Source: Escherichia phage EP75
Sequence record: MG748547
DNA: 64,000 nucleotides
Reading direction: 5' to 3' (one strand)
Shown here: piece by piece, positions 35,041 to 59,525 of the stretch
Layout: each line of letters starts with the position of its first letter
Position numbering within the stretch: position 1 is the stretch's first letter
Notes under the pieces: model-generated
Seen by the model: only the letters and a program-made list of their open reading frames with translations
What the model was told of the DNA's origin: nothing
The model's database searches: none
Made by a program: the position numbers and the translations under genes

Positions 35041-35066
35041 CCCCGCTTTGGCGGGGTTCTTATTAT
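35041..35066 (+). terminator. rho-independent terminator CCCCGC-TTTG-GCGGGG + T-rich
   Basis: read directly. Confidence 0.55.
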
Positions 35067-40235: not shown

Positions 40236-40265
40236 AAAAACCCCGCTTCGGCGGGGTTTTTATTT
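40236..40265 (+). terminator. rho-independent terminator CCCCGC-TTCG-GCGGGG-TTTTTATTT
   Basis: read directly; identical core at 53781..53805. Confidence 0.65.
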
Positions 40266-40288
40266 CTATCCTGTTTGTTGGCTGTATA

Positions 40289-40328: not shown

Positions 40329-43300
40329 ATGCAATCTACAAATTTAAACCGTCGCCCGTATTGGGATGACTGGAATCCTGGGAAACGTTTTTCACGGATT
40401 CTTTTTCGTCCGATGCCTATCAAGGTTCAGACTCGCGAACTGAACCAGATGCAGACTATTCTTCAGGATCAAATTGAAAAACTGGGCAACCATTTGTTCA
40501 AAGATGGTTCTATGGTTATCCCTGGTGGTCTGACGATTACCAATGCCGCAGTCTCTTTGAAATTCACTTTGGCTGGTGGTACTGAATTCACTGATCTGGA
40601 AGGTATTTCTGAACTCTACGTTTTGGGGAAGGACAATAATGCCAAAGCGCGTGTGTTGTCTCTTGAACGTGATCTGTCTGCTCCTGATACGATGCTGGCT
40701 ATCCTTGAGATGACTGAAGCGGGTAATGCTGACGGATTCCATGTTAACGATAATCTGTATTTCCAGACTTACGACGTGAATGATAATTTCATTCGTATTG
40801 GTTATGGTATCGCAGCTGCAGTGACTGGTTCTATCGTCGCTCGTATGACAAAAGGCGTTTACTTCATTCGTGGGATGTTCCTAGACGTTGATGACGCAAC
40901 TCTTATCGTTGATAAAACTTCTAACATCACTTCCCACCGCATCGGATTTAAAGTCACCGAAACTATTGTCACCGAAACAGAAGATGAATCCCTTTATTCA
41001 AATGCTCAGGGAACGATTAACTCTAAAGCCCCAGGCGCTCATCGTCTTCGAATAGATCTGGTCTTATCTCGATTTGATTATGATGCTGTGGTTGAAGACT
41101 TTGTTGAACTGGCCAAAGTTCGTGAAGGTAAAATCCAGTCTATGGTGACTCAGTCCACCTATAATATTCTGGAAGACACGTTAGCCCAACGGACTTATGA
41201 AACCAATGGCGATTACAACGTTTCAACCCACCAGATCGATATTCGTGAACACCTGAAAGTCAATAACAATGGCGGGGTATTCAATGCCGCTGATGGCGGT
41301 GACGAGAGCAAATTTGTTTCTGTGATGAAACCAGGCATATCCTATGTTCGCGGTCGACGTATCGAAAACGTCGGGGAAGAGTTGGTGATCGTTGATAAGG
41401 CGCGGGATACCGATGTCCTGAACAACACCCCTGTTGCGGTGGCCACAGGCAATTATCTGGTCACTAAGAATTCTAAAGGTGTGCCAGTGATATCCCGCAC
41501 CGTTCGATACAAATTACTGAATGCTTCAGGCGTTACCCAGGCTACAGCACTTTGTATATCAGCTGAACGTAATTCAACAGAATTTCGTCTGTATATGCGC
41601 GACCTGGTCGTTACTGGCGATGCATCCACTATCACCAAAGTGTCTTACGAAGAAAGCGGTATCACCATGTTCTCTGCTGAACTGGAATCCAATCAGTTTA
41701 ACCAGAGTTCTATGATAGATCTGATCTTCTCTCTTCCGGTATTCGGTGTCAAGACTTTAGCACCAACTGGCTCCGTGGATATCAACTACACTGTTCTCAG
41801 AACGTATAAAGTGACGTTGGACAACAGCGGCGCGGGTTCTATTTCTGCTCCATTGGGATATAGTTTTTCCCCAGAATTTTCGTTATACTCTGCAGCGAAA
41901 TCAGATGGTTCGGAAGCGCAGTTCGATATCTCTGGTTCTTTGTCTTTGACTGGTTCTCCGGTCGGTTCGGCGCTGCAGATTTCTCTGGGCAGTGGTAATG
42001 CTAACCAGTCAATCAATTTGCTGGCGCTGATGATTCGTACCACGGCCACAATCAAAACGAAGACCATCACTGAAACAACTGAAACAGTGACGTTCACCTC
42101 GCAGACTAGCCGCCCTTTGGCGAATCACGATGGTTGGAAATTGGTGTCGGTCAAAAACGATACTGGCGCAGACGTGACCTCCAGCTTCGTCCTAGATGGC
42201 GGACAGCGTGATGCAGGGTATTACAAGTCTAACTTGTTATCCAGCGCTGGAGCAATCTCAGGGACGTATACAGTGGTGTATCAATACTTCGCCCACAGTT
42301 CCGGTGATTTCTTCTCTGCTGATTCGTATACTTCGATGGATTATAAAGATATCCCGAATTATACATCTTCTACATCAGGCGCGGTGTACGGCCTGGCAGA
42401 TAGTTTGGATTTCCGTCCGAAAATCACCAACGGAACTTCTGACACAGATATGGTTCGTCCAAACACTGCAGTTATTCTGGACACAGAATATTATCTGCCG
42501 CGTATTGACGCGATTTATCTGGCAGACAACGGCGTGTTCGGAGTGGCTCGTGGCATCAGTTCGAACAATCTGGCTTCTCCAGCAATCCCAGCGAACGCCA
42601 TGCGTTTGTATGAATTGTTGATCCCGCCGTATACACCGAATATTGATGATATTCAAATTCGAACTATTGATAATCGTCGTTATACGATGCGCGATATCGG
42701 TAAACTGGAAACCCGTATTTCCAATGTTGAATACTATACCTCTCTGTCACAGCTGGAATCTTCAGCGATGACACAGCAAGTGTTCGACCCCATCACGGGT
42801 AATCCCCGTTTCAAAAATGGTATTGCGGCTGATCCGTTCAAAGACTTCCGGTTGATTGATGACTTGTCTGAAGATTGGATGGGTTCTATCGATACCGAAA
42901 ACGGACGTCTGCGCCCGTTTGTACAACAAAACGTTGTTGACATGACTCCTGTTGGCTGGAACAAAGTGATGGATGGGATGGTGGTTTGCAATTACACGCC
43001 TGAAATCTCAGTGAACCAAGAATATGCGACGACGACGATCAACGTTAACCCGTATGCAGTATTCAATTGGGAAGGTTTCTTGAAGATTAACCCGACCACA
43101 GACTACTGGTTCGAAAACTATTATGTTGCGCCGCGTATTATCAATGAAACGATCAACACCCGTGGTACTGTACAAGAAGGTTCAGTGTACGGAACATGGC
43201 GTACTGTTTCTGTTTCTGATCGTGTTTGGGAACCGCATGGCGCTGGTGGTGTGTGGTGGGGATATCGTTACCGCACGACTGTTTCTGCCCGTGATGTCAC

Positions 43301-48950: not shown

Positions 48951-49633
48951 TCATGAGCAATATGTCAGAAAGGTTACTCGCCACACTTGATGCGGTGACT
49001 GCCCGAGACGAAGTTGGGAAGGAGGCAATGGAGGCTGTCGCCCCTCGTCCAGGTATTGACTTCGATGAAAATACAGGTGAATGGTTTGGTGAACGTCCGG
49101 AAGGGTATCAGCCGATTCCTGAACCGCCTTCATTGGAGGATATTGCTTCCAAGGAATCCAAAGTACCTGAGTTTGCGGACACTGATGCTACAACGGATTA
49201 CAAACGGATACGCGACACAACATATGCCATGCAAGAAGCCACAATGTTCATGATGGGACAAGCCGCTAAATTGGCTGCATCCACAGAAGCTCCGCGAGCA
49301 TTTTCTGTTTTCCGTGAATTGGGTGAACTCATGCGCGGTCTGAATAAAGACCTGATGGAAAACCAGAAAACCATCAAGGCGGTGACAGGTGATAAAGAAC
49401 CACCTGTTGATGACACGACAGTGGATGTTACAACTTCACCAGACGGAACAACAACAGTATCGGTTGGGAAAAAGGCGCGATCTTCTCGCGATTTATTGAA
49501 GACGATTGAAGATGCCCGTCGTCGCGCTGAAGAAAGAGCACAAGCAAAGGCCGCACAACAACCAGAAGATGAAATCATTGATGGTGAAACAGTTGATGTG
49601 AAGGAAGAAGACGATGGCGTATCAGAAGCGTGA
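48947..49633 (+). CDS. terminase small subunit (gp16-like)
   Basis: immediately upstream of and overlapping terminase large subunit. Confidence 0.5.
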   Translation: MIMSNMSERLLATLDAVTARDEVGKEAMEAVAPRPGIDFDENTGEWFGERPEGYQPIPEPPSLEDIASKESKVPEFADTDATTDYKRIRDTTYAMQEATMFMMGQAAKLAASTEAPRAFSVFRELGELMRGLNKDLMENQKTIKAVTGDKEPPVDDTTVDVTTSPDGTTTVSVGKKARSSRDLLKTIEDARRRAEERAQAKAAQQPEDEIIDGETVDVKEEDDGVSEA

Positions 49634-51824
49634 TATAGAATATGCCCCAATTAAAACGGGGTTCAAAATAGACGATGTGAAATTGCGTATGGACCAAACG
49701 TTCATGCGCAAACCTTCTGTGCGTGCTCCCCGAGTCGAGTTAATGCTGACAGATGAACAAGAAGACGAATTCGTTGAATGTTCTATGGATGCACACTACT
49801 TCGCCGCCAACTATTACAAGATAACCACGATCGATAAAGGCTTTATCCTTTTCGATATGCATGATTATCAGAAGCAGTTGTTCCACGACTTTCAGGACTA
49901 TCGATTCAATGCGGTCGTCCAGGCTCGTCAGTCCGGAAAATGTGTAAAAGGCGACACGCTTGTCACAGTTTACGATACTCTCAGCCAAGAGGAGTTGCTC
50001 CTGACTATAGGGGAGCTTCACAGTCGCTTCGAGGACGTCAACCACGCTGTGCCGCTGAATACCATTGGCAACCATGACAAGTTCGTGGACAGCCGCTTCG
50101 GCAAACGTTACTTTGTACAATCCGATAGTGGCTGGGTTCCGGTTATCGCAGCGCATAAGACGAAGAAATATGCGGAATTCGTTATTGTCACCGTTACCGG
50201 AAGGCGAATTAACGTGGCCGATGAACATATGTTCTTCACTCCGGACATGAAGGAGATATTTGCCAAAGACCTGAATGCTGGGTCATACATCATGACGACA
50301 GAAGGTCCAGAAGAAATCCGTGAGATTTGGCAGACTGGTGAATATCACCATATGTACGATCTGCAGGTCAAATCTAGTGATCAACGTTATTACACGAATG
50401 GCTTTCTCAGTCATAACACGACCGTGGTGGCGGCGTTTCTTCTTTGGTACGCGATGTTCCATTCTGATAAGGAAATCGCAGTACTGGCAAACAAAGAGAA
50501 ACAAGCGATAGAAATTCTTGACCGTATCAGAAAGGCATACCAAGACCTTCCATTCTTCCTTCAGCAGGGTTGTGAGAAGTTTGGTTCTACCCTGATAGAG
50601 TTTGAGAATGGTTCTAAGATATACGCTTATGCCACGTCTTCGGACTCCATCCGTGGTCGTTCTGTATCGCTCTTGTACGTTGACGAAGTCGCGTTTATCG
50701 AAAACGACTTTGAATTTTGGGAATCAACTTTCCCAGCCATTGCATCTGCCGATACATCACGCTGTATTTTGACAAGTACTCCGAAAGGCCAGCGAGGGTT
50801 GTTCTATGATATTGTCACCAAAGCAGATCCGCGCCATCCACAATACAACGACTTCCACCTAACTGAAGTCCCATGGTATAAGGTTCCGGCATATACCAAA
50901 GATCCAGATTGGGAAACCAAACAACGTGCCCGTCTGGGGGATGCTCGTTTCGATCAAGAATTTGGCATTAAGTTCCGTGGTTCCGTGGGTTCATTGATTC
51001 CGGCCAAATGCTTAGATAAAATGACGTCCAAGTTGTATCGGGAACCTAATGAATTCACCAAGATTTATAAGGAATACGACCCACAACGTCTCTACTTTGG
51101 GATTGCGGACACTGGGAAGGGGGTGGAAGGAGATTATTCCGTCTTAACAATTCTGGATATAACTGAATATCCGCATGTTATAGCAGCCAAGTACAGGAAT
51201 AACACGATACCTCCTATGATGTATGCATACACGATAGCTGATATGTGCACCGAATACGGGGAATGCCCTGTCCTTGTTGAAACAAACAACGACGTCGGCG
51301 GTCAGGTTATTACAATTCTTTATCAAGAGATAGAATATCCAGAAATCATATTCACATCAACAGATAACAAAGGGACGGGGAAACGGATTGGTGGACGTAA
51401 ACCGGAACCTGGTATCAATACCAACAGAAAAGTCCGATCTATCGGTTGTGCTAACCTGAAAGCGCTCATTGAGAAAGAAATGTTGGTGATAGAAGACCAG
51501 GACACGATAGATGAACTCAGTACATTTGTGTTCAAAGGCGCTCGGTATGAAGCCGATGACGGTTGTCACGATGACTGTGTCATGCCGTTGGTCTTATATT
51601 CATGGGCGGTAAAACAAGAATGGTTCAGTGATTTGACATCTACAAGTATTTCTCAGGACATGAGAAACCGAATGTCTTCAACTGAATCTCAGCAGGTATT
51701 CCCATTTGGTGGTTTAGTCGTTGGAGACACCCCATCCGAAACTGAGCATTTGCCTGGTTTCGGGGGTATTCAAGTTTTCAACGAAATGTCAGGGATGACC
51801 ATGGATGAGTGGTTTAAGAATTGA
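49614..51824 (+). CDS. terminase large subunit (gp17-like), intein-containing precursor
   Basis: Walker A QARQSGK|TTVVAAFLLWY split by insertion; 736 aa precursor, about 574 aa after splicing. Confidence 0.9.
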   Translation: MAYQKRDIEYAPIKTGFKIDDVKLRMDQTFMRKPSVRAPRVELMLTDEQEDEFVECSMDAHYFAANYYKITTIDKGFILFDMHDYQKQLFHDFQDYRFNAVVQARQSGKCVKGDTLVTVYDTLSQEELLLTIGELHSRFEDVNHAVPLNTIGNHDKFVDSRFGKRYFVQSDSGWVPVIAAHKTKKYAEFVIVTVTGRRINVADEHMFFTPDMKEIFAKDLNAGSYIMTTEGPEEIREIWQTGEYHHMYDLQVKSSDQRYYTNGFLSHNTTVVAAFLLWYAMFHSDKEIAVLANKEKQAIEILDRIRKAYQDLPFFLQQGCEKFGSTLIEFENGSKIYAYATSSDSIRGRSVSLLYVDEVAFIENDFEFWESTFPAIASADTSRCILTSTPKGQRGLFYDIVTKADPRHPQYNDFHLTEVPWYKVPAYTKDPDWETKQRARLGDARFDQEFGIKFRGSVGSLIPAKCLDKMTSKLYREPNEFTKIYKEYDPQRLYFGIADTGKGVEGDYSVLTILDITEYPHVIAAKYRNNTIPPMMYAYTIADMCTEYGECPVLVETNNDVGGQVITILYQEIEYPEIIFTSTDNKGTGKRIGGRKPEPGINTNRKVRSIGCANLKALIEKEMLVIEDQDTIDELSTFVFKGARYEADDGCHDDCVMPLVLYSWAVKQEWFSDLTSTSISQDMRNRMSSTESQQVFPFGGLVVGDTPSETEHLPGFGGIQVFNEMSGMTMDEWFKN
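49941..50426 (+). other. mini-intein (162 aa, Hint domain only) inserted in terminase Walker A P-loop
   Basis: begins Cys (CVKGDTLVTV), block B GRRINVADEHMFFT, block F/G MYDLQV...NGFLSHN, +1 Thr restores GKT. Confidence 0.75.
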
Positions 51825-51826
51825 TC

Positions 51827-51833
51827 ACTAAAT
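51827..51833 (+). promoter_or_regulatory. late-promoter-like motif CTAAATA
   Basis: upstream of tail sheath gene. Confidence 0.4.
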
Positions 51834-51876
51834 ATCTTTCAAATTGAGCGAAACTCTACCGAGAAGGAATGATATT

Positions 51877-53772
51877 ATGGCAACTCAAAGCTTCAGCGTT
51901 GCGCCGTCCGTTCAGTGGACTGAGCGTGATGCCACGCTTCAGACGTCCCCGTCCGTTGTTGTTCAGGGCGCGACCGTCGGCAAATTTCAATGGGGTGAAG
52001 TTGAACTTCCAGTGCTGGTGACTGGTGGTGAGACAGGTTTGGTGAAGAAATTCTTCAAACCCAACGACAGTACTGCGACCGATTTTCTCGTAATCGCGGA
52101 CTTTTTGTCTTACAGCTCTATGGCATGGGTGACCCGTGTTGTTGGTCCTCTGGCCAAGAACTCTGTTACCAAAGGTCAGACAGCGATTGCGATCAAAAAC
52201 AAACTGGATTTTGAAACAGCAAGTCCTTCGGCGTCCATCACTTGGACTGGTCGTTATCCAGGTTCCCTGGGTAATGATATTGCTATCAATGTTTGTGATG
52301 CTGCTGGATTCTCAACTTGGGAATTCCGTAATAACTTTGCATACGCACCTCAGTCTGGTGAATTCCATGTAGTTGTCGTAGACAAAGTTGGTCGCATTAC
52401 CGACTCTGCTGGCGCGGTCGGTCAGGTTGACCGTATCTCCGTTTCTGGTACGGCTACTGCTGCTGGCACCATCAGTGTGGCAGGTGAAGATATCGCATAT
52501 CTGGATACTGATACTCCAGCCACTTTGGCAACCAAAATCGGTACAGCGCTAACTTCCCTGACAAGTGTTTATTCTTCTGTTGTCGTGAAGTCCAACACTG
52601 TCATCGTGACCCATAAAGCTATCGGTCCTCAGGCCGTTACAGCTATCGTTCCTGATGATAAAGGACTGACTGCAACAGCCGTAATCACTACTGTTGGCGC
52701 TTCTGGTTCCATCATTGAAAAATACGAACTGATGCAGAACACCCAGGGTTCTAAAAAATCCGATGGCGCGAATGCGTACTTCAAAGACGTGATCAACGAT
52801 ACTTCAAATTGGGTGTATACCTTCGCGGGCGAACTGGTTGCAGGTGTCGTTGAATTAGAAGGCGGCGTAGACGATTATAACATCAACCGCGTGGCAGCTA
52901 TCCAAGTCTTGAACAATGCTGAAGCATATGATGCGAAGCCAGTATTTGCGTACTGTGAAGAACTGATTGAGCAACAAGCATTGATCGACTTATCTACTGA
53001 GCGAAAAGATACCGTATCTTTCGTATCCCCGCTCCGTGATACGGTTGTTGGCAACCGTGGTCGTGAAATGGATGATGTCGTTGCTTGGCGTGAAAGCCTT
53101 GTTCGCGACTCTTCTTATTTCTTCATGGATGATAACTGGGCATACGTGTACGACAAGTACAACGACAAAATGCGTTGGATTCCGGCTTGTGGTGGCACCG
53201 CAGGTGTTTGGGCGCGAAGCATTGAAATCGCGGGTATCTACAAATCTCCTGCGTTCCACAACCGTGGCAAATACAACAACTACAATCGAATGGCGTGGTC
53301 TGCGTCTTCCGATGAACGTGCCGTGTTGTACCGCAACCAGATTAACAGCATTGTGACCTTCTCCAATGAAGGTATCGTGTTGTATGGTGACAAAACTGGC
53401 CTGACTCGTCCGTCTGCTTTCGATCGTATCAATGTTCGCGGTCTGTTTATTATGGCAGAACAGAACATCGCTGCAATCGCCAAATATTACCTTGGTGAGA
53501 ACAATGATGCGTTCACTCGCAGTCTGTTCAGCAACGCTGTTCGTCCTTATATTCGCCAGCTGGCAAATATGGGTGCGATTTACGATGGTAAAGTCAAGTG
53601 TGATGAAGATAACAACACTGCTGATGTTATCGCAGCAAATCAGCTTGTAGCGGGCATTTGGTTGAAGCCTGAGTACAGCATTAACTGGATTTATTTGGAT
53701 TTTGCTGCAGTTAGACCAGACATGGAGTTCTCGGAAATCGAATCGGGCGGTGGCATCGTTGCTGCATCCTAA
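51877..53772 (+). CDS. tail sheath protein (gp18-like)
   Basis: GKFQWGE near N-terminus and C-terminal YGDKTG...PSAFDRINVRGLF match T4 gp18 motifs; start trimmed to MATQSF. Confidence 0.85.
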   Translation: MATQSFSVAPSVQWTERDATLQTSPSVVVQGATVGKFQWGEVELPVLVTGGETGLVKKFFKPNDSTATDFLVIADFLSYSSMAWVTRVVGPLAKNSVTKGQTAIAIKNKLDFETASPSASITWTGRYPGSLGNDIAINVCDAAGFSTWEFRNNFAYAPQSGEFHVVVVDKVGRITDSAGAVGQVDRISVSGTATAAGTISVAGEDIAYLDTDTPATLATKIGTALTSLTSVYSSVVVKSNTVIVTHKAIGPQAVTAIVPDDKGLTATAVITTVGASGSIIEKYELMQNTQGSKKSDGANAYFKDVINDTSNWVYTFAGELVAGVVELEGGVDDYNINRVAAIQVLNNAEAYDAKPVFAYCEELIEQQALIDLSTERKDTVSFVSPLRDTVVGNRGREMDDVVAWRESLVRDSSYFFMDDNWAYVYDKYNDKMRWIPACGGTAGVWARSIEIAGIYKSPAFHNRGKYNNYNRMAWSASSDERAVLYRNQINSIVTFSNEGIVLYGDKTGLTRPSAFDRINVRGLFIMAEQNIAAIAKYYLGENNDAFTRSLFSNAVRPYIRQLANMGAIYDGKVKCDEDNNTADVIAANQLVAGIWLKPEYSINWIYLDFAAVRPDMEFSEIESGGGIVAAS

Positions 53773-53780
53773 GACAACAA

Positions 53781-53805
53781 CCCCGCTTCGGCGGGGTTTT
53801 TATTT
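53781..53805 (+). terminator. rho-independent terminator CCCCGC-TTCG-GCGGGG-TTTTTATTT
   Basis: identical to 40241..40265. Confidence 0.65.
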
Positions 53806-54588
53806 CCTGCTGATATGCCATCCTGTAGTGTTTGTTCTCTTCAGTGAAGATTTCCTGTAAGGTTTAGGGATGGGATTCTGCATCCTTCCAGCTAATGCCA
53901 TGTTGAAAGATTCTATACACAAACATTGTTCTTGACAAAATTTGTTTAGATTCTTGATTTCATATTTTTCACCATCTGGTGAAAGAAGTGTAAACCATCT
54001 TCCGAGAGATCGTTTTATTTTCTCTTGGTATTCAGGATTCATGCGCACTTTGTTCATAGCGGCACGGAGATTTTCTTTACATTTTGGATTTTCGTACGCT
54101 TTCTTCAAACATTGTGAATGTATATGGCGTTTGTTTTTGTCCCAAGCCTTGGTTTGAGATTCAGACATTTTCGTTTTTGTTTCTTCGGAAAGTTTAATGC
54201 CTGTCATTGAATGAACAAACAAAACATTCCAACCAGCATCTTTAACTGGTTTCATCCCGATGAATTCTCTGGTTTCTATATCATATGCTGCTGCCATACC
54301 CGATATGTCTATTTGACCACCATGACTGATGTTCAGTCCACCTTCAGAGATATGAGTCTTATGTAATTTTATGAGTTCAATTTCTTTAGAATTTAGTTCA
54401 TCGACTTGGCATTCCAGCAATATCTCTTGGTCAGTAATTCCATATTTTCGGATATAATTGTAGAGGATAGTTTTATTTCCTCTTCTGGCCTCACCCAGAT
54501 GCTCCTTTATTCGGTGTTCAACCCCATTTCTTGTTTGTCCAATATACTTCTTTCCACCAACGATTAACATGTAAATGTGACCGATCAT
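53800..54588 (-). mobile_element. GIY-YIG homing endonuclease (Seg/I-TevI-like) with NUMOD-like C-terminal repeats
   Basis: MIGHIYMLIVGGKKYIGQTRNGVEHRIKEH; start trimmed to MIGH with GGAGGTG RBS; opposite strand to flanking sheath/tube genes. Confidence 0.7.
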
Positions 54589-54655
54589 ACAACACCTCCA
54601 AGAACATGATACCCCGAAATTGTTCAACACTAAATAAAATAGAGGTGAATTTGAA

Positions 54656-55114
54656 ATGATATACGCATACAAAATTGAAACGATAACTAATGGAAAGGTC
54701 TACATCGGTGTGACCAATCACCCACAACGAAGATATGATCAGCATTTTGCGAATGCTTTTCATCATGGAGTCCAAAGTGAATTGTATGATGCCATGCGTA
54801 AGTATGGAACATCTGGATTTACTTTCGTTGTAATTGCTCAGACCGATGAAGTCCATAAATGGGAATTAGAGAAGCAACTCATCGCTCAATATAATTCTTA
54901 TGAGATGGGTTACAACATGAATAAAGGCGGTAATGATGGAAGTCATATGCTGGGTAAAACTGCAGCAAAATTGACATCTACAGGTGAACACATTGGTCTT
55001 GTTTCTCTCATAGATCCCCGTTGGGAATTGTGTGAAATCGAACCCGTTTTAAGCAATGTTGACCACGGATTTGATTTTTCTTCCATGAAGATTAAAAGAT
55101 TGACGACTAATTAG
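54656..55114 (+). mobile_element. GIY-YIG homing endonuclease-like protein
   Basis: MIYAYKIETITNGKVYIGVTNHPQRRYDQH. Confidence 0.6.
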
Positions 55115-55144
55115 AATTGTGTACTCTTATTTGGAGATATAAAA

Positions 55145-55678
55145 ATGGCGACAGTCAATGAGTTTCGCGCAGCCATGTCACGAGGGGGCGGCGTACAACG
55201 CCAACACCGCTGGCGTGTGACTGTAAACTTTCCTTCTTTTGTTGCTGGTTCCGACACAATTCGCGACGTGTCCTTGCTAGCTGTAACTACCAACACCCCG
55301 ACAGGTCAGCTGGGTGAAATTCTGGTGCCCTGGGGTGGTCGTGAACTTCCATTCCCAGGCGACCGTCGTTTCGAAGCACTGCCTGTAACATTCATTAACG
55401 TTGTGAACAACGCGCCGTACAACGCATTTGAAGTGTGGCAGCAATTCATCAATGGTAGTGAAAACAACCGCGCCAGCGCGAATCCAGATGATTATTTCCG
55501 TGATATCATCATGGATCTTCTGGATGCGAATGACAATGTCACCAAGACATGGACTTTGCAGGGCGGCTGGCCTCAAAACCTCGGCCAATTGGAACTCGAT
55601 ATGTCTGCTATGGACTCTTATACACAGTTCACCGTCGATCTGCGTTATTTCCAAGCCGTGTCAGACAAATCTTTATAA
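55145..55678 (+). CDS. tail tube protein (gp19-like)
   Basis: C-terminal QGGWPQNLGQLELDMSAMDSYTQFTVDLRY resembles T4 gp19 KGLWPTNVGELQLDWDS...FEVTLALDY. Confidence 0.8.
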   Translation: MATVNEFRAAMSRGGGVQRQHRWRVTVNFPSFVAGSDTIRDVSLLAVTTNTPTGQLGEILVPWGGRELPFPGDRRFEALPVTFINVVNNAPYNAFEVWQQFINGSENNRASANPDDYFRDIIMDLLDANDNVTKTWTLQGGWPQNLGQLELDMSAMDSYTQFTVDLRYFQAVSDKSL

Positions 55679-55745
55679 TGTCCTCAGTGCTGGGGGAATC
55701 ATATTCCCCCTCACTAATTACAAGAAAATGTTGAGGACTTAGATC

Positions 55746-57428
55746 ATGGCTGGATACGGCAGAGGGTTCTTCGGTTTGTTTGGCGGCGGCGGTTTGGTGA
55801 ACGCTAAAGTCGACACCGATAAGTTAGCCCAAAAACAAGATGAACGGTTGCTAACCAAAGCGACAGTTGTTGCTCTGGACGACGCTCAAGACGGTTCTAT
55901 AATCCTTCAGGGTGGTGCGAACACCTACAACTATGTTGGCGTTGAAAGTGAACTTCTCAGCGTTAAAACTGTTGTAGAAGAATATCAGTCCATGGCCCAG
56001 CAGCCTGAAATTCGCAAAGCGGTGGACATTATTGTCAACGATGTTGTCACATGTGAGGAAGATGAAACTCCAGTGACAGTAAATCTTGACAAAGTTGAAG
56101 GGATATCTGATACTGTTAAAGAATCTATCACCGAATGCTTCAAAGAAGTTATGCACTTGATGGACTTTGACAATACGGCATACCAGAAGATCCGGAAATG
56201 GTATGTTGACGGTAGACAAGCATATCATGTCATCGTTGACCCCACGAATAAAAAAGGCGGGATCAAGAAATTGGTCATGTTGGATTCCCGTTGTATTCGC
56301 CCTGTGTACATCGTAGAAAAGGTGATGCGAGAAGGTGGTATCGAAGCCATCGAATCTGTAACGCTGAAATATTATTACAACCCGAATTACAACCGGAACC
56401 AATTCACTGGTCAGTCAGGGACTTCTCAAAACTTCCAGCCTTCACAACAAGAACTCGTATTCGATGACGAAAGTATTGTTTACATCGATAGTGGTGAAGA
56501 GCCATTGGCCAACGGTATTGTTCCAGGGCTTTTAAACCCTGCTATCCGTCCGTTGAATAACCTGGTCACAACTGAAGATGCGACTGTAATTTATGCCATC
56601 ACTCGCGCCCCCGAAAAACGCGCATTCTATCTTGACGTCGGTACTCTTGGTAAGAAATCTGCTGAAGAATACATGACCATGATGATGGGCAAATTCAAAA
56701 ACCGTAACGCATATGACCGCACCACTGGTAAAATCACAGGCAACGCCCATCTTATGGGTATTGCAGAAGATTATTGGTTGCCGCGCCGCGAAGGTCAGAA
56801 TGCTACAGAGATCGCGACTGTTGGTGGTGGGAATCAATTGGGCGAAATGGATCACGTGAACTATTTCCGTGAAAAACTCTATGATGCTCTAATGATCCCT
56901 AAGAGCCGCCTCCAAGAGGAAGGATCTATTAACATTGGGGGTTCTAACCTTGCGGAGATTACACAGGAAGAGCTGCGTTTCAGCAAGTTCTGTGCTGGGT
57001 TGCGTCGCCGTTACTCCCATTTCTTTATGGAGTTTTTACGTCGTCAATTAATTTTGAAAGGCGTAACGGATGAAAAGGATTGGAATGAGAAGATCAAACC
57101 ATTTATCAAGTTTGAATTCACTTCCGACAGTTATATCCGTGAGCAACAAGAAAACGCAATCCTAAATGATCGCCTGGCTTCTCTGAACACTGTTGAGCCT
57201 TTTGTTGGTTCTATATTCTCCATCGATTATGTCATGCGGAATGTTCTGCGTATGTCAGACGAAGAAGTTAAAGAACAACAGGCTAAGATCGCGGAAGAGA
57301 AGAAGAAAGGTCTCTATCCGAAGGTTCAAGCAGATGAAACTGGCAATTATAGTGGTTCAGATGTTAGTCCGTTGAAGTTTAAACCTGAGACTATCCCATT
57401 CTCCGGTTCAACAGACGATAGTATTTAA
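55746..57428 (+). CDS. portal vertex protein (gp20-like)
   Basis: 560 aa, position between tube and prohead genes. Confidence 0.75.
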   Translation: MAGYGRGFFGLFGGGGLVNAKVDTDKLAQKQDERLLTKATVVALDDAQDGSIILQGGANTYNYVGVESELLSVKTVVEEYQSMAQQPEIRKAVDIIVNDVVTCEEDETPVTVNLDKVEGISDTVKESITECFKEVMHLMDFDNTAYQKIRKWYVDGRQAYHVIVDPTNKKGGIKKLVMLDSRCIRPVYIVEKVMREGGIEAIESVTLKYYYNPNYNRNQFTGQSGTSQNFQPSQQELVFDDESIVYIDSGEEPLANGIVPGLLNPAIRPLNNLVTTEDATVIYAITRAPEKRAFYLDVGTLGKKSAEEYMTMMMGKFKNRNAYDRTTGKITGNAHLMGIAEDYWLPRREGQNATEIATVGGGNQLGEMDHVNYFREKLYDALMIPKSRLQEEGSINIGGSNLAEITQEELRFSKFCAGLRRRYSHFFMEFLRRQLILKGVTDEKDWNEKIKPFIKFEFTSDSYIREQQENAILNDRLASLNTVEPFVGSIFSIDYVMRNVLRMSDEEVKEQQAKIAEEKKKGLYPKVQADETGNYSGSDVSPLKFKPETIPFSGSTDDSI

Positions 57429-57434
57429 AGTTCA

Positions 57435-57441
57435 ACTAAAT
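57435..57441 (+). promoter_or_regulatory. late-promoter-like motif CTAAATA
   Basis: upstream of small prohead gene. Confidence 0.4.
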
Positions 57442-57469
57442 ATAGAAAATTAATTCGGAGATCAAAATC

Positions 57470-57640
57470 ATGAGCGCAATTGATATCGTTCGTGCAGTAA
57501 TTGATGGCGACACAGATACTGCTGTTGCAGAATGCAACATGGAACTTGATGCACGTAGTCAAGAACTATTGAACCAAGGTACAGCATATGTTTTGGATTC
57601 TATCGCGGCTGATATGAATTCAAATAACGACGGTCAGTAA
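57470..57640 (+). CDS. small acidic prohead core protein candidate (56 aa), below ORF-track cutoff
   Basis: ORF MSAIDIVRAVIDGDTDTAVAECNMELD... with GGAG RBS in the gp67/68-equivalent position. Confidence 0.3.
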   Translation: MSAIDIVRAVIDGDTDTAVAECNMELDARSQELLNQGTAYVLDSIAADMNSNNDGQ

Positions 57641-57648
57641 GGAGACGC

Positions 57649-57966
57649 ATGATGGAAATCACAGAGATCGCCACGTTCGCTGATTTCCTGGCCTCTCGTA
57701 TGGACGAGCAGCGAGTCATCGATAAAGTGAACGCTCGTGGTAAACGCCGCCGCCGACTGAAATGTGCCCCTGGGTTCAAATTGTCGGCTGATGGTTCACG
57801 TTGTGAAGTTATGGACGCCAGCGAACGTCGTGTTCGCAAGATCGGCAACCGCAAAGCCCTCCGCTCTAAAAAGCGTATGGGAATGGGCTATCAACGTAAA
57901 ATCGAGCGCCGCAAGAAAAAGGCTATGAAGTTCCGCAAAATGATGGGACTGAGTAAGAACAAGTAA
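57649..57966 (+). CDS. basic prohead core / internal protein candidate
   Basis: 105 aa, K/R-rich, AAGGAG RBS, between portal and protease. Confidence 0.4.
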   Translation: MMEITEIATFADFLASRMDEQRVIDKVNARGKRRRRLKCAPGFKLSADGSRCEVMDASERRVRKIGNRKALRSKKRMGMGYQRKIERRKKKAMKFRKMMGLSKNK

Positions 57967-57973
57967 GGAGTTT

Positions 57974-58642
57974 ATGATGAAACTGTTGCGTGAGATCACA
58001 GCGATAGGGAAGGATCTTCAAATCGGTGAGGCCACAACCTCAACTGGTGGGAAGGCCATGTTCATCGAAGGTCCGTTTGTGATGTGTAACCAAGTCAACC
58101 GTAACGGGCGTAACTATGATCTGCAGAAAGTGGGTATTCCTGCTGTCGAAGCATACGACAAAGAGTATATCCAAGATCGTCGCGCAATCGGTGAAGTCAC
58201 ACATCCTGACTATCCTTTCCCTAATTTAGTGGAAGCTGCACTCAAAACCGAATCCCTTCGTTGGGAAGGCACTAATGCCATCGGACGGGCGCGAATTTTA
58301 AACACACCGAAAGGCCAAATCATTCGTGCACTGGCCGAAGCAGACTTCAATCTGGCCGTGTCTACTCGTGGCCTGGGTGAGACTAAGTCGGTAAACGGTT
58401 ATGATGACGTTCAGCCTGGCTTTATGCTTACCGCCGTTGATGCAGTTGACCGTCCTTCTGGACAAGTTTGTTATGTTAAGGCTGTGAGTGAATCTGTTGA
58501 ATGGCAGCTGGACGAGGCTTCTGGTATTTGGATGCCTCGTGATGTTAAAGGGAAAGTTGTAGACCAGTTGGTGAAAGCCAATATCCAGGTTGAAGACGAT
58601 TTCCTGCGCCGCCTTGATGCAGCATTGAATCATCTGGGCTGA
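57974..58642 (+). CDS. prohead core protease (gp21-like)
   Basis: NRNGRNYDL and VSTRGLGETKS resemble T4 gp21 SRNGRIYP / MSSRGSGS. Confidence 0.7.
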   Translation: MMKLLREITAIGKDLQIGEATTSTGGKAMFIEGPFVMCNQVNRNGRNYDLQKVGIPAVEAYDKEYIQDRRAIGEVTHPDYPFPNLVEAALKTESLRWEGTNAIGRARILNTPKGQIIRALAEADFNLAVSTRGLGETKSVNGYDDVQPGFMLTAVDAVDRPSGQVCYVKAVSESVEWQLDEASGIWMPRDVKGKVVDQLVKANIQVEDDFLRRLDAALNHLG

Positions 58643-58653
58643 AATTCAGCTCA

Positions 58654-58660
58654 CTAAATA
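58654..58660 (+). promoter_or_regulatory. late-promoter-like motif CTAAATA
   Basis: upstream of scaffold gene. Confidence 0.4.
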
Positions 58661-58688
58661 CTGAAAAATCGTTCAGAAGGAAACTATC

Positions 58689-59525
58689 ATGAAACCTGAA
58701 TTGCAAAACCTGTTTGAAGGCGTTAACGGCATCAGCCCAGATTTCCTGGATAAAGTATCCAATCTGCTGGAATCTAAAGTTGAAGCGGCTCGTCTGAAAG
58801 CTATCCAAGAAACCGAAGCAGCTGGCAACGCCGAGCGCCTGAATCTGGTCGAATCCCACCAGAAAGAAATCGCCGACCTGAAAGAAAATTTCATTCTGCA
58901 ATTGGCTGGGAAAGTTGACTCATTCCTCAATGCGGTAGTTGAAGAATGGGCTAACAAAAATGCCCCAGCTATTGACGCTCAGATCAAAACTGAAGCTGCT
59001 GAACGCTTCCTCACTGGTTTCTCCAACGTTCTGAAAGAAGCAGGTGTGAATTTCGCTACTGACCCAGACGGTCAGATCGCTGCTCTTACCAGTCGCCTTG
59101 CTGAAGCAGAACAACGCGCCAACATGGCTAATACCGAATTGAACCAACTCAAAGAAAGCGAAACTAAACGCCAGCGCACTGACGTGATTGATCGCATCTG
59201 TGAAGGTATGGTTGACACCAAGAAAGACACTGTCGTCAACCTGCTGGAAGGTATTGAATTCCAGACCGAATCTGAATTCGAATCACGTGTTCGCACCTTC
59301 CGCAATCTGGTAGAAGGCAAAGATGACTTCTCTGACAAAGTCGGCAAAGACAATGAAAAGGGTAAGCCAAATGGCGACAAAGATGAAAAGGACATCAAAG
59401 AAGGCAAAAAACCGAAAAAAGAAGGCGATGACAAAGACGACGATGATGACGATGACAAAGACGAAGTTGGTAAAGAAGTCAACGAATCCGTCCGTCGCCA
59501 GATCAGCGCCTTGCTGAACGGCTAA
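58689..59525 (+). CDS. prohead scaffolding protein (gp22-like)
   Basis: helical, highly charged, KDDDDDDDKDE tract near C-terminus. Confidence 0.65.
   Translation: MKPELQNLFEGVNGISPDFLDKVSNLLESKVEAARLKAIQETEAAGNAERLNLVESHQKEIADLKENFILQLAGKVDSFLNAVVEEWANKNAPAIDAQIKTEAAERFLTGFSNVLKEAGVNFATDPDGQIAALTSRLAEAEQRANMANTELNQLKESETKRQRTDVIDRICEGMVDTKKDTVVNLLEGIEFQTESEFESRVRTFRNLVEGKDDFSDKVGKDNEKGKPNGDKDEKDIKEGKKPKKEGDDKDDDDDDDKDEVGKEVNESVRRQISALLNG

Follow-up and report, generated by a model that had tools for sequence, protein, structure and literature searches.

Two GIY-YIG endonuclease genes of contrasting architecture and mobility in the sheath–tube spacer of Escherichia phage EP75

The presence of two GIY-YIG reading frames in the gap that separates the tail sheath gene from the tail tube gene in Escherichia phage EP75 (record MG748547, of which a stretch of 64,000 nucleotides, referred to below as the window, was analysed) raises the question of whether the two genes, here called HEG1 and HEG2, are equivalent homing endonucleases or products of different evolutionary histories at one site. 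The natural reference for such genes is the SegA–SegG group of phage T4, whose members are free-standing GIY-YIG homing endonuclease genes in spacers between conserved genes, combine an N-terminal GIY-YIG domain with C-terminal DNA-binding modules, are present in some relatives and absent from others, co-convert flanking markers and have a GC content below that of their surroundings. T4 itself is not known to carry an endonuclease gene in its gap between genes 18 and 19. Pointers to this literature are Edgell, Gibb and Belfort 2010, cited in PMC3296691, and the SegB paper cited in PMC8472413. The comparisons described below show that the spacer holds two paralogous free-standing GIY-YIG genes, which probably stand at different stages of the homing life cycle. 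The principal features of the locus are as follows.

51877–53772, plus strand: gp18-like tail sheath gene, flanking the cassette upstream (Pfam Phage_sheath_1C, 6e-14; PHROG 23, 3e-114).
53800–54588, minus strand: HEG1, a free-standing full-length GIY-YIG homing endonuclease of 262 amino acids beginning MIGHIYML (Pfam, PHROG, AF2 model and family alignment).
54589–54655, no strand: divergent intergenic region of 67 bp with both Shine-Dalgarno sequences, kept in Det7 and in Klebsiella phage cp18.
54656–55114, plus strand: HEG2, a short GIY-YIG nuclease of 152 amino acids beginning MIYAYKIE (Pfam PF01541, 1e-10; PHROG 5123, 2e-93, full length).
55145–55678, plus strand: tail tube gene (gp19-like), the downstream flank (PHROG 45, 2e-56; Pfam Phage_T4_gp19, 4e-5).

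The locus and the lineage of the phage

An initial annotation of this DNA had described two GIY-YIG genes lying back to back and filling the gp18–gp19 gap. Both frames are intact and lie on opposite strands, with Pfam, PHROG, fold and comparative support, and together they take up the whole of the 1,372-bp spacer that runs from the sheath stop at 53772 to the tube start at 55145; the wording “back to back” is loose, because the 5' ends of the two genes face each other across 67 bp, and the genes are therefore divergent, or head to head. The start codon of the sheath gene agrees with the annotation of bering and Det7. The GC content of the cassette is 0.375, compared with 0.48 in the sheath gene and 0.50 in the tube gene.

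The same annotation had taken the phage to be T4-like, which did not hold up. The best genome matches, at 91–96% identity, are to Kuttervirus (Ackermannviridae) without exception, and by these matches the phage is a Kuttervirus (Ackermannviridae, Vi1-like) in which the structural module, gp17–gp20, is T4-related; membership among the T4-like phages proper (Tevenvirinae / Straboviridae) was ruled out, true T4-like phages matching only in fragments of 60–90 bp. An endonuclease encoded by a group I intron was also ruled out: an Rfam search of positions 49000–59000 with E up to 1 returned no intron or RNA family, its two RsmY matches being chance hits on the terminator, the sheath and tube reading frames are uninterrupted, and TIGR01453 scores below its cutoff. 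A transposon-like element was rejected because a repeat search found neither target-site duplications nor terminal inverted repeats, and a defence-system reading was dropped because PADLOC had no match for HEG1 and, for HEG2, none beyond its generic “HEase” models.

The pair is already annotated in public phage records, and the find is real yet ordinary. Orthologs include Det7 genes 5 and 6, bering_19 and bering_20, and the 152-aa “GIY-YIG endonuclease” of PhiSH19 and Vi01, which the PhiSH19 paper of 2011 placed between tube and sheath (PMC3220722). Over its 1,372 bp the cassette matches bering, in which both genes are annotated as GIY-YIG homing endonucleases, at 100% identity and Det7 at 90%, and the HEG1 protein is 100% identical to a bering protein annotated “GIY-YIG homing endonuclease”. 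At the gene level nothing separates the window from the annotated Kuttervirus orthologs; what it pairs is a cassette of the bering type and an upstream sheath haplotype that is PhiSH19-like. A search of the literature on Ackermannviridae, Viunalikevirus, Kuttervirus and Det7 returned annotations only, with no experimental work on these enzymes.

Architecture of the two proteins

HEG1 begins at an ATG at 54588, with GGAGGT upstream at a spacing of 5 nt; its frame reaches a TTG at 54672 in the list of open reading frames, and all GenBank homologs begin at the ATG. The start of HEG2 is preceded by GAGGTG. Both proteins match Pfam and PHROG, the match of HEG1 to the GIY-YIG family PF01541 (E=7e-4, 20.3 bits) falling slightly below the 22.6-bit cutoff. 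TIGR01453, scoring below its own cutoff, also counts towards their identity, and the GIY-YIG assignment which the initial annotation had staked on a domain match is upheld for both genes. Sequence searches against PDB chains gave little, with no meaningful match for HEG1 and nothing better than E=0.15 to I-TevI for HEG2, and it was the fold searches that settled the relationship to I-TevI: Foldseek matches the HEG2 model to the I-TevI structure 1ln0 with a probability of 1.0 and a TM score of 0.70. HEG1 likewise has an I-TevI-like fold. The AlphaFold model of HEG2 is of low confidence overall (pLDDT 56.5) and was relied on for the catalytic core only. The invariant residues of the HEG1 family (Y6, Y15, G17, R26, H30, E69 and N86) and of HEG2 (Y5, Y16, G18, R26, H30, E70/E72 and N87) include the Tyr, Tyr, Arg, His, Glu and Asn that make up the catalytic set of I-TevI (T4 td intron; PDB 1LN0, 1MK0, 1I3J).

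HEG1 is laid out as a catalytic domain (residues 1–90), a beta linker (98–128), NUMOD3-type helices (131–194) and a C-terminal DNA-binding domain (196–262), and its AF2 model shows four consecutive helices at 135–194 followed by a beta-beta-alpha-alpha domain at 196–232 (pLDDT 86–92). Two features lie in the part that joins the domains.

54091–54214, minus strand: hypervariable block of HEG1 that covers the NUMOD3-like linker, residues ~126–166 (mismatch lists, protein alignment).
54151–54195, minus strand: NUMOD3-like motif KLSEETKTKMSESQT, HEG1 residues 132–146 (PF07460 match at residues 131–145, E=0.033, 14.6 bits against a cutoff of 20.4).

NUMOD3 (PF07460) is recognised at the same position in 9 of 14 aligned members of the HEG1 family (best E 3.6e-8), and a domain search of HEG1 found neither NUMOD1 nor NUMOD4. 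Of the NUMOD-like C-terminal repeats that had been proposed for HEG1, what stands is one sub-threshold NUMOD3 match followed by helices, and the term “repeats” overstates it. As modelled, HEG1 has the linker-joined C-terminal DNA-binding region expected of the Seg/I-TevI type, and by predicted architecture it is a complete enzyme of that type.

The likeness to I-TevI extends to the modular order of catalytic domain, linker and DNA-binding domain. Unlike I-TevI, HEG1 and HEG2 lie outside any intron, neither a zinc finger nor an I-TevI-type helix-turn-helix was detected in them, and the C-terminal domain of HEG1 instead resembles part of I-HmuI and AcrVA3. With T4 SegA–SegG the two genes share an intergenic location, a modular layout, patchy presence, low GC and a putative co-conversion of flanks; they differ in phage family and in site, HEG1 is antisense to the late operon, and the sequence similarity is confined to the catalytic domain, SegE_GIY-YIG being matched weakly, by relatives.

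HEG2 carries a conserved linker, STGEHIGLVSLxDPRW, after its catalytic domain, and its residues 100–135 are strongly conserved among homologs, down to 54% overall identity. Its alignment to paralogs of 237–245 aa covers only their residues 1–145, a domain search with E up to 10 returned nothing besides GIY-YIG, and its AlphaFold model is unstructured past residue 128. HEG2 accordingly appears from its sequence to lack the ~90-aa C-terminal DNA-binding domain kept by HEG1 and by HEG3, a third paralog discussed below; the confidence of the model is low, and the absence of a DNA-binding element from the last 50 residues is therefore not proven.

Polymorphism and mobility at the sheath–tube junction

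Comparative genomics of the junction reveals a presence/absence polymorphism. The site is empty and only 78 bp long in Shigella phage Ag3, consistent with the earlier remark that this spacer is normally compact in T4-like phages. HEG2 stands there alone in PhiSH19, HEG1 and HEG2 together in the window, bering, Det7, PhaxI and cp18, HEG3 and HEG2 in S118 and KpS110, HEG3 alone in barely, a HEG1-like gene alone in Se-J, and an unrelated Hef-like endonuclease in Kamild and PH4; no HEG2 occurs in Ag3, Limestonevirus, barely or Se-J. Products of decay are also found, namely a 39-aa remnant of HEG3 in Dickeya phage Kamild and a HEG1-like gene in two pieces in UTK0004. By these comparisons the sheath–tube junction is a hotspot for homing endonucleases, with at least seven arrangements. 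A census of the phage collection counted HEG1 in 28 records, HEG3 in 57 and HEG2 in 210, with one copy per genome throughout, and no further paralogs of HEG1, HEG2 or HEG3 were found elsewhere within the 64-kb window.

The relationship of the window to bering defines one further feature.

53221–55263, no strand: 2,043-bp tract with 100% identity to bering, made up of the last 552 bp of the sheath gene, the entire cassette and 119 bp at the start of the tube gene.

The mismatches to bering that flank this tract lie at 53220 and 55264, and the flanks are ~6% diverged; mismatches specific to PhiSH19 start at 53250, the window being PhiSH19-like to the left of 53221–53249. We interpret the tract as a product of conversion or recombination, with the endonuclease genes at its centre. 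Within HEG1, the hypervariable block is almost entirely exchanged when the window/bering and Det7/PhaxI alleles are compared, with 62% identity in this bin and 90–98% in the others. Mosaicism is found throughout the sheath, tube and portal genes, beyond the cassette too, and because these phages recombine freely, the identical tract and the chimeric alleles may be the products of plain homologous recombination without an endonuclease.

Transfer between genera is seen in cp18, the sole Klebsiella phage with HEG1. Its HEG1 segments match Kuttervirus alleles at 96–98% identity, compared with 78–80% for its backbone and flanks, the synonymous distance between window and cp18 is 0.51 for HEG1 versus 1.31 for the flanks, and the transferred segment ends at gene boundaries. 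HEG1 is, on this comparative evidence, patchy and recently mobile, including transfer across genera. HEG2 occupies the same site in three genera, Kuttervirus, Taipeivirus and Miltonvirus (for example in Serratia phage 2050H1), and between window and cp18 its dS is 1.48 at a dN/dS of 0.08, with a dS of 1.31 for sheath and tube. It is, as far as sequence divergence can tell, an old and nearly fixed resident of the site, whose divergence between genera has kept pace with that of its flanks. Both genes are under purifying selection (dN/dS 0.21–0.24 for HEG1 and 0.08–0.17 for HEG2), and because selection maintains it, HEG2 still does something, whether or not that is homing. The treatment of the two genes as an equivalent pair is not borne out, since HEG1 has the full predicted architecture and is recently mobile, while HEG2 is nearly fixed and apparently without the C-terminal domain of its paralogs.

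The reading that we prefer, of two paralogs at different stages, would work as follows. In a mixed infection, HEG1 would cut the sheath–HEG2 junction of phages without HEG1, the break would be repaired off the HEG1-bearing genome, and HEG1 would be copied in along with several hundred bp of the sheath and tube genes on either side. HEG2 would be the descendant of a full-length enzyme of the same family, of the HEG3 type found in S118 and barely, and would have lost its DNA-binding domain along the way. The cleavage activity and the target site in this account are predictions, as is the promoter role of the motif considered in the next section.

It is conceivable, though doubtful, that HEG1 and HEG2 are equally active and independent homing enzymes, with HEG2 finding its targets via its short conserved C-terminal extension and still homing into HEG2-free genomes, of which barely and Se-J would be available examples. 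The catalytic residues of HEG2 are intact, the high conservation of residues 100–135 is consistent with such a role, and HEG2 alleles within Kuttervirus commonly share 99–100% identity where the flanks are 5–7% different (aagejoakim, PhiSH19), as expected if the allele keeps spreading. This account must contend with a protein that is without the roughly 90-aa C-terminal domain of HEG1 and HEG3 and for which no DNA-binding fold is predicted beyond residue 128 (in a low-confidence model), and with a divergence of HEG2 between genera that equals that of the flanking structural genes, which argues for vertical descent.

Expression signals, the role of HEG2 and implications

Insertion of an antisense gene into a late operon raises the matter of how the cassette is delimited. 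Three features bear on it.

53779–53798, no strand: T2, a GC-rich hairpin terminator behind the sheath gene, with the sequence AACCCCGCTTCGGCGGGGTT (terminator scan, both strands).
54629–54636, plus strand: ACTAAATA, putative late-promoter core facing HEG2 and tube (motif count, spacing to ORF starts).
55106–55113, plus strand: ACTAATTA, variant form of the promoter-like motif, lying before the tube gene and overlapping the HEG2 stop (conserved in the empty Ag3 site).

The HEG1 stop codon falls within the T-run of T2, an identical 26-mer occurs at 40241, and a T2 hairpin adjoins the stop of each minus-strand endonuclease gene at the sheath–tube junction. ACTAAATA occurs 11 times in the window, compared with 1.7 copies expected, always 20–50 nt ahead of an ORF start. 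At all eight loci with a minus-strand endonuclease gene, an additional plus-strand copy is found at or close to the 5' flank of that gene, and at all six loci without one the motif is absent from the spacer. ACTAATTA also precedes the portal gene at 55713, and in Serratia phage 2050H1 its position is taken by an exact ACTAAATA. T4-type late promoters were ruled out, TATAAATA occurring once in 64 kb and away from the cassette. Sites in a sigma-70 promoter scan were no more numerous than in shuffled sequence, with none in the divergent spacer, and the promoter scan found no convincing minus-strand promoter for HEG1. Under the preferred reading the HEG1 cassette would be self-contained, with the hairpin terminator at one end and the outward ACTAAATA and a strong ribosome-binding site at the other, and its antisense insertion in the late operon may leave tube expression intact. 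The idea that the motif drives the tube gene is weakened because in Kamild the outward ACTAAATA meets a native terminator within ~30 nt.

A comparable arrangement is known from the Dickeya phage LIMEstone1 (Ackermannviridae), where F-LimVIII is a free-standing endonuclease on the opposite strand adjoining the tail tube gene (PMC3296691). Its homolog in Kamild shares with HEG1 the sheath–tube junction, the T2 hairpin at the stop and ACTAAATA at the 5' flank. F-LimVIII differs from HEG1 in belonging to an unrelated 596-aa Hef-like family with DUF7487 and DUF559/MTES_1575-type domains. An extended proposal, speculative and in our view unlikely, would make the junction a shared landing pad with a common “polarity-neutral” frame (hairpin at the 3' end, outward ACTAAATA at the 5' end) for unrelated minus-strand endonucleases, GIY-YIG HEG1 and Hef-like, with HEG2 behind the promoter a domesticated nuclease rather than a homing enzyme; if this were true, the frame would restore or even boost transcription of HEG2 and tube.

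The domestication of HEG2 can also be considered by itself, as a stand-alone nuclease that is no longer selfish and that, for example in the manner of EndoII, destroys unmodified DNA of the host or of competitors but leaves the phage's own hypermodified thymidine DNA alone. Ackermannviridae DNA contains hypermodified thymidines (PMC8472413), and the single-domain, 152-aa form of HEG2 under purifying selection (dN/dS 0.08–0.17), its constant position across three genera and 210 records, and its location in the window directly behind a late-promoter-like motif and a strong Shine-Dalgarno sequence all fit. HEG2 is dispensable, however, being missing in Ag3, Limestonevirus, barely and Se-J, and it is most closely related to full-length homing endonucleases, with 43% identity to HEG3, rather than to EndoII; domestication seems a distinctly poor prospect. 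That both genes are inert relics, their mosaic due to general recombination alone and their reading frames too young to have decayed, is highly improbable: the mosaicism of sheath, tube and portal genes beyond the cassette and the decay products in Kamild and UTK0004 are in keeping with it, but dN/dS is far under 1 at large synonymous distance (0.08 at a dS of 1.5 for HEG2; 0.21–0.24 for HEG1), the catalytic residues are all invariant in both families, and the transfer of HEG1 into a Klebsiella phage halts at gene boundaries.

Taken alone, the pair of genes carries little weight; it is well known that free-standing homing endonuclease genes contribute to the variation among large lytic phages. 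One site nevertheless offers a natural series of empty, occupied, tandem, truncated and remnant states, together with a clear and recent transfer between Salmonella/E. coli and Klebsiella phages, which would suit studies of homing in phages with hypermodified DNA. Kutterviruses serve in biocontrol and therapy, and a hotspot of recombination or co-conversion between sheath and tube is practically useful to know. If ACTAAATA is confirmed as the late promoter of the family, it would aid genome annotation.

The endonuclease pair and its setting

The best genome matches (91–96% identity, none identical) place the phage in Kuttervirus (Ackermannviridae, Vi1-like) and not among T4-like phages proper, the setting assumed in the initial annotation. 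ORF calls and Pfam and PHROG profiles delimit a T4-related morphogenesis block at 49.6–57.4 kb of the window, in which the 1,372-bp spacer between the gp18-like sheath gene and the gp19-like tube gene holds two ORFs, HEG1 and HEG2, whose 5' ends face each other 67 bp apart. The ORF check reproduced exactly the coordinates first assigned to this pair, and confirmed the observation of a divergent endonuclease pair filling the spacer, the reading of which was right in outline.

Features of the morphogenesis block (window coordinates)
49614–51824, large terminase, intein-bearing
51877–53772, tail sheath
53800–54588, minus strand, HEG1, 262 aa; ATG at 54588, preceded by GGAGGT
54656–55114, plus strand, HEG2, 152 aa; ATG preceded by GAGGTG
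55145–55678, tail tube
55746–57428, portal

The GC content of the two-gene cassette is 0.375, compared with 0.48 for the sheath gene and 0.50 for the tube gene; searches of the cassette region for an intron and for transposon-type repeats returned neither.

Both products belong to the GIY-YIG endonucleases, as had been proposed from the ORFs alone. HEG2 matches Pfam GIY-YIG at 1e-10 and, over its full length, PHROG 5123 (“homing endonuclease with GIY-YIG motif”) at 2e-93; its predicted model is weak overall (pLDDT 56.5), and the core aligns with I-TevI at a TM of 0.70. HEG1 scores 20.3 bits against Pfam GIY-YIG, narrowly missing the cutoff of 22.6, and matches PHROG 314 at 4e-31 and TIGR01453 at 9e-9. 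In both families the catalytic residues (Tyr, Tyr, Arg, His, Glu and Asn) show no variation. The part of HEG1 that follows the nuclease domain comprises a short beta linker, four helices (residues 135–194) and a confidently predicted C-terminal beta-beta-alpha-alpha domain which resembles part of I-HmuI and AcrVA3. The “NUMOD-like repeats” attributed to HEG1 are partly right, because the first of these helices gives a NUMOD3 match and NUMOD3 is scored at that position in 9 of 14 aligned relatives; the match in the window is, however, sub-threshold (E=0.033) and confined to a single helix.

Neither the cassette genes nor their kind are new, because the genes are already annotated in public records: both are called GIY-YIG (homing) endonucleases in those of Salmonella phage bering, GEC_vB_GOT and Det7. 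The 152-aa gene (HEG2) was listed between tube and sheath in the 2011 PhiSH19 paper (PMC3220722), and an opposite-strand endonuclease gene adjoining the tail tube gene has been described in LIMEstone1 (PMC3296691). A literature search found no enzymology for either protein.

The large terminase gene of the same block contains a 159-aa mini-intein (CVKGDTL…FLSHN|T; 49941-50417), which interrupts the Walker A loop (ARQSGK|intein|T) and matches Pfam Intein_splicing at 6.8e-7, under the cutoff. Relative to bering and Det7, no other part of the gene diverges as much as the intein region (43–68 mismatches per 200 bp), which is near-identical in PhaxI and BRM 13313, so different intein alleles circulate; an intein-containing terminase is also annotated in Maynard and Magnus.

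Occupants of the sheath–tube junction

Comparative genomics of the gp18-gp19 junction, one of the checks originally suggested, covered 15 fetched loci and revealed arrangements ranging from an empty spacer to two-gene pairs, which marks the junction as an endonuclease hotspot.

Arrangements at the junction
Empty spacer, 78 bp: Ag3
HEG2 alone: PhiSH19 and most Kutterviruses
HEG1 and HEG2: the window, bering, Det7, PhaxI, Klebsiella phage cp18
HEG3 (plus strand, 237–245 aa) and HEG2: S118, KpS110
HEG3 alone: barely
HEG1 relative, 62% identical, alone: Se-J
Hypothetical gene and HEG2: Magnus
Unrelated Hef-like endonuclease, minus strand, 562–596 aa: Kamild, PH4

By tblastn against the phage collection, HEG2 is present in 210 records, the HEG1 family in 28 and the HEG3 family in 57, with never more than one copy per genome. 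Judged by alignment, the three are paralogs: HEG1 aligns end to end with HEG3, including the C-terminal “SPxGExxEI…TTGW” domain, and HEG2 aligns with no more than the ~145 N-terminal residues of HEG3 (40–44% identity), so that it looks like a HEG3-type gene from which the DNA-binding domain has been lost.

Three observations point to HEG2 as an old resident under selection: its dS between the window and cp18 (1.48, with dN/dS of 0.08) matches that of the flanks (1.31), Serratia phage 2050H1 has it at this position too (60% amino acid identity, with 65% for portal and 73% for sheath), and its C-terminal extension is strongly conserved. Within Kuttervirus, HEG2 alleles are often closer to each other than their flanks are, and therefore exchange continues. 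The dN/dS ratios of 0.21–0.24 for HEG1 and 0.08–0.17 for HEG2 (tube and sheath, 0.007–0.11) indicate purifying selection on both genes.

Remnants and modified copies were also observed. In Dickeya phage Kamild (locus L006, 4100-4219), a 39-aa ORF (MITNSHIDSGPIPEV…RLKTTGWQLIRIV) that lies after the native terminator and ahead of the tube gene, adjoining the unrelated 596-aa Hef-like gene, is an internal-deletion remnant of a HEG3-type GIY-YIG gene, the trace of a previous occupant. The sole HEG3-type gene of Salmonella phage barely (locus L005, 2212-2925) runs on through the tube gene's conserved ACTAATTA and ribosome-binding region, stopping 2 nt short of the tube ATG (…WQLIRIVYSYLEI*), and has absorbed this regulatory sequence. 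In Salmonella phage vB_SenM_UTK0004 (OQ359883.1, 109313-110103), a HEG1-like gene is matched by tblastn in two pieces, under two annotated “hypothetical proteins”, which suggests a frameshifted, decaying copy.

Signs of HEG1 mobility

The cassette is 100% identical to that of bering and 99.8% to that of GEC_vB_GOT. The window matches bering without mismatch over a 2,043-bp tract (53221–55263) which spans the last 552 bp of the sheath gene, the cassette and 119 bp at the start of the tube gene, and at whose borders mismatches occur every few bases. Left of 53221–53249 the window follows the HEG1-free PhiSH19 haplotype at ~1% divergence. The simplest reading of this pattern is that a PhiSH19-like backbone gained a bering-like cassette and, by co-conversion, the sequence flanking it. 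BRM 13313 has the window's HEG1 allele (1 mismatch) and not its HEG2 allele (20 mismatches, from 54681 on), so HEG1 and HEG2 reassort. The HEG1 allele of Det7 and PhaxI is 85% identical to that of the window, with the block at 54091–54214 (NUMOD3-like linker) replaced almost entirely.

Among Klebsiella phage records in the phage collection, cp18 alone carries HEG1, and its gene (locus L012, 4025-4810) is a chimera of three parts. The N-terminal third resembles the window allele (96–98% identity over window 54276–54655) and the middle that of Det7 (96% over window 53977–54276), and identity to both falls to ~73% in the C-terminal part. The cp18 flanks are only 78–80% identical to the window, and dS is 0.51 for HEG1 compared with 1.31 for sheath and tube; these values mark a recent transfer of HEG1 between phage genera.

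In the 3' 520 bp of the sheath gene (window 53250-53772), haplotypes differ to an unusual degree, by 11–17% per 100-bp bin, almost all synonymous, compared with about 1–5% upstream of 53250. There are at least three such haplotypes, with no one-to-one fit to endonuclease cassette type.

The cassette terminator and a putative late promoter

A hairpin, AACCCCGCTTCGGCGGGGTT, follows the sheath gene, and the HEG1 stop codon lies inside its T-run. The 26-nt terminator CCCCGCTTCGGCGGGGTTTTTATTTC occurs twice in the window, at 53781-53806 after the sheath gene and at 40241-40266 ahead of a 1,612-aa ORF at 40329, and has relatives at 35041 and 37914. Terminators repeated in this way could provide the short stretches of homology through which cassettes are exchanged.

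Eleven copies of the octamer ACTAAATA are present in the window (22508, 29735, 32860, 35096, 40288, 46804, 47576, 51827, 54629, 57435 and 58653) against 1.7 expected, a count reached by 0 of 100 shuffles. Every copy precedes an ORF start by 20–50 nt, in the orientation of that ORF, and a variant, ACTAATTA, is found at 55106 ahead of tube and at 55713 ahead of portal. The octamer is probably the phage family's late-promoter core. Only a single copy of the T4 consensus TATAAATA is present in the window.

One copy (54629–54636) lies just upstream of HEG2. In 8/8 fetched loci where an endonuclease gene lies on the minus strand, the unrelated Hef-like ones included, the spacer has an extra plus-strand ACTAAATA, which sits at the 5' flank of that gene wherever the sequence was read or the coordinates are known; a copy in the spacer is present in 0/6 loci that lack such a gene. 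In Se-J ACTAAATA replaces the tube gene's own ACTAATTA, and in the HEG2-only arrangement HEG2 has neither ACTAAATA nor a good SD. A promoter scan identified none for HEG1 itself. These associations suggest that the antisense cassette carries its own terminator and an outward putative promoter, and by supplying both it would leave the downstream late genes expressed. Kamild is a caveat to this reading, with the native terminator immediately after ACTAAATA.

In sum, the comparison gives a tidy set of details, none of them a surprise for phage homing endonucleases: a conversion tract, a chimera across genera, a resident paralog that is truncated, and a cassette frame in common.
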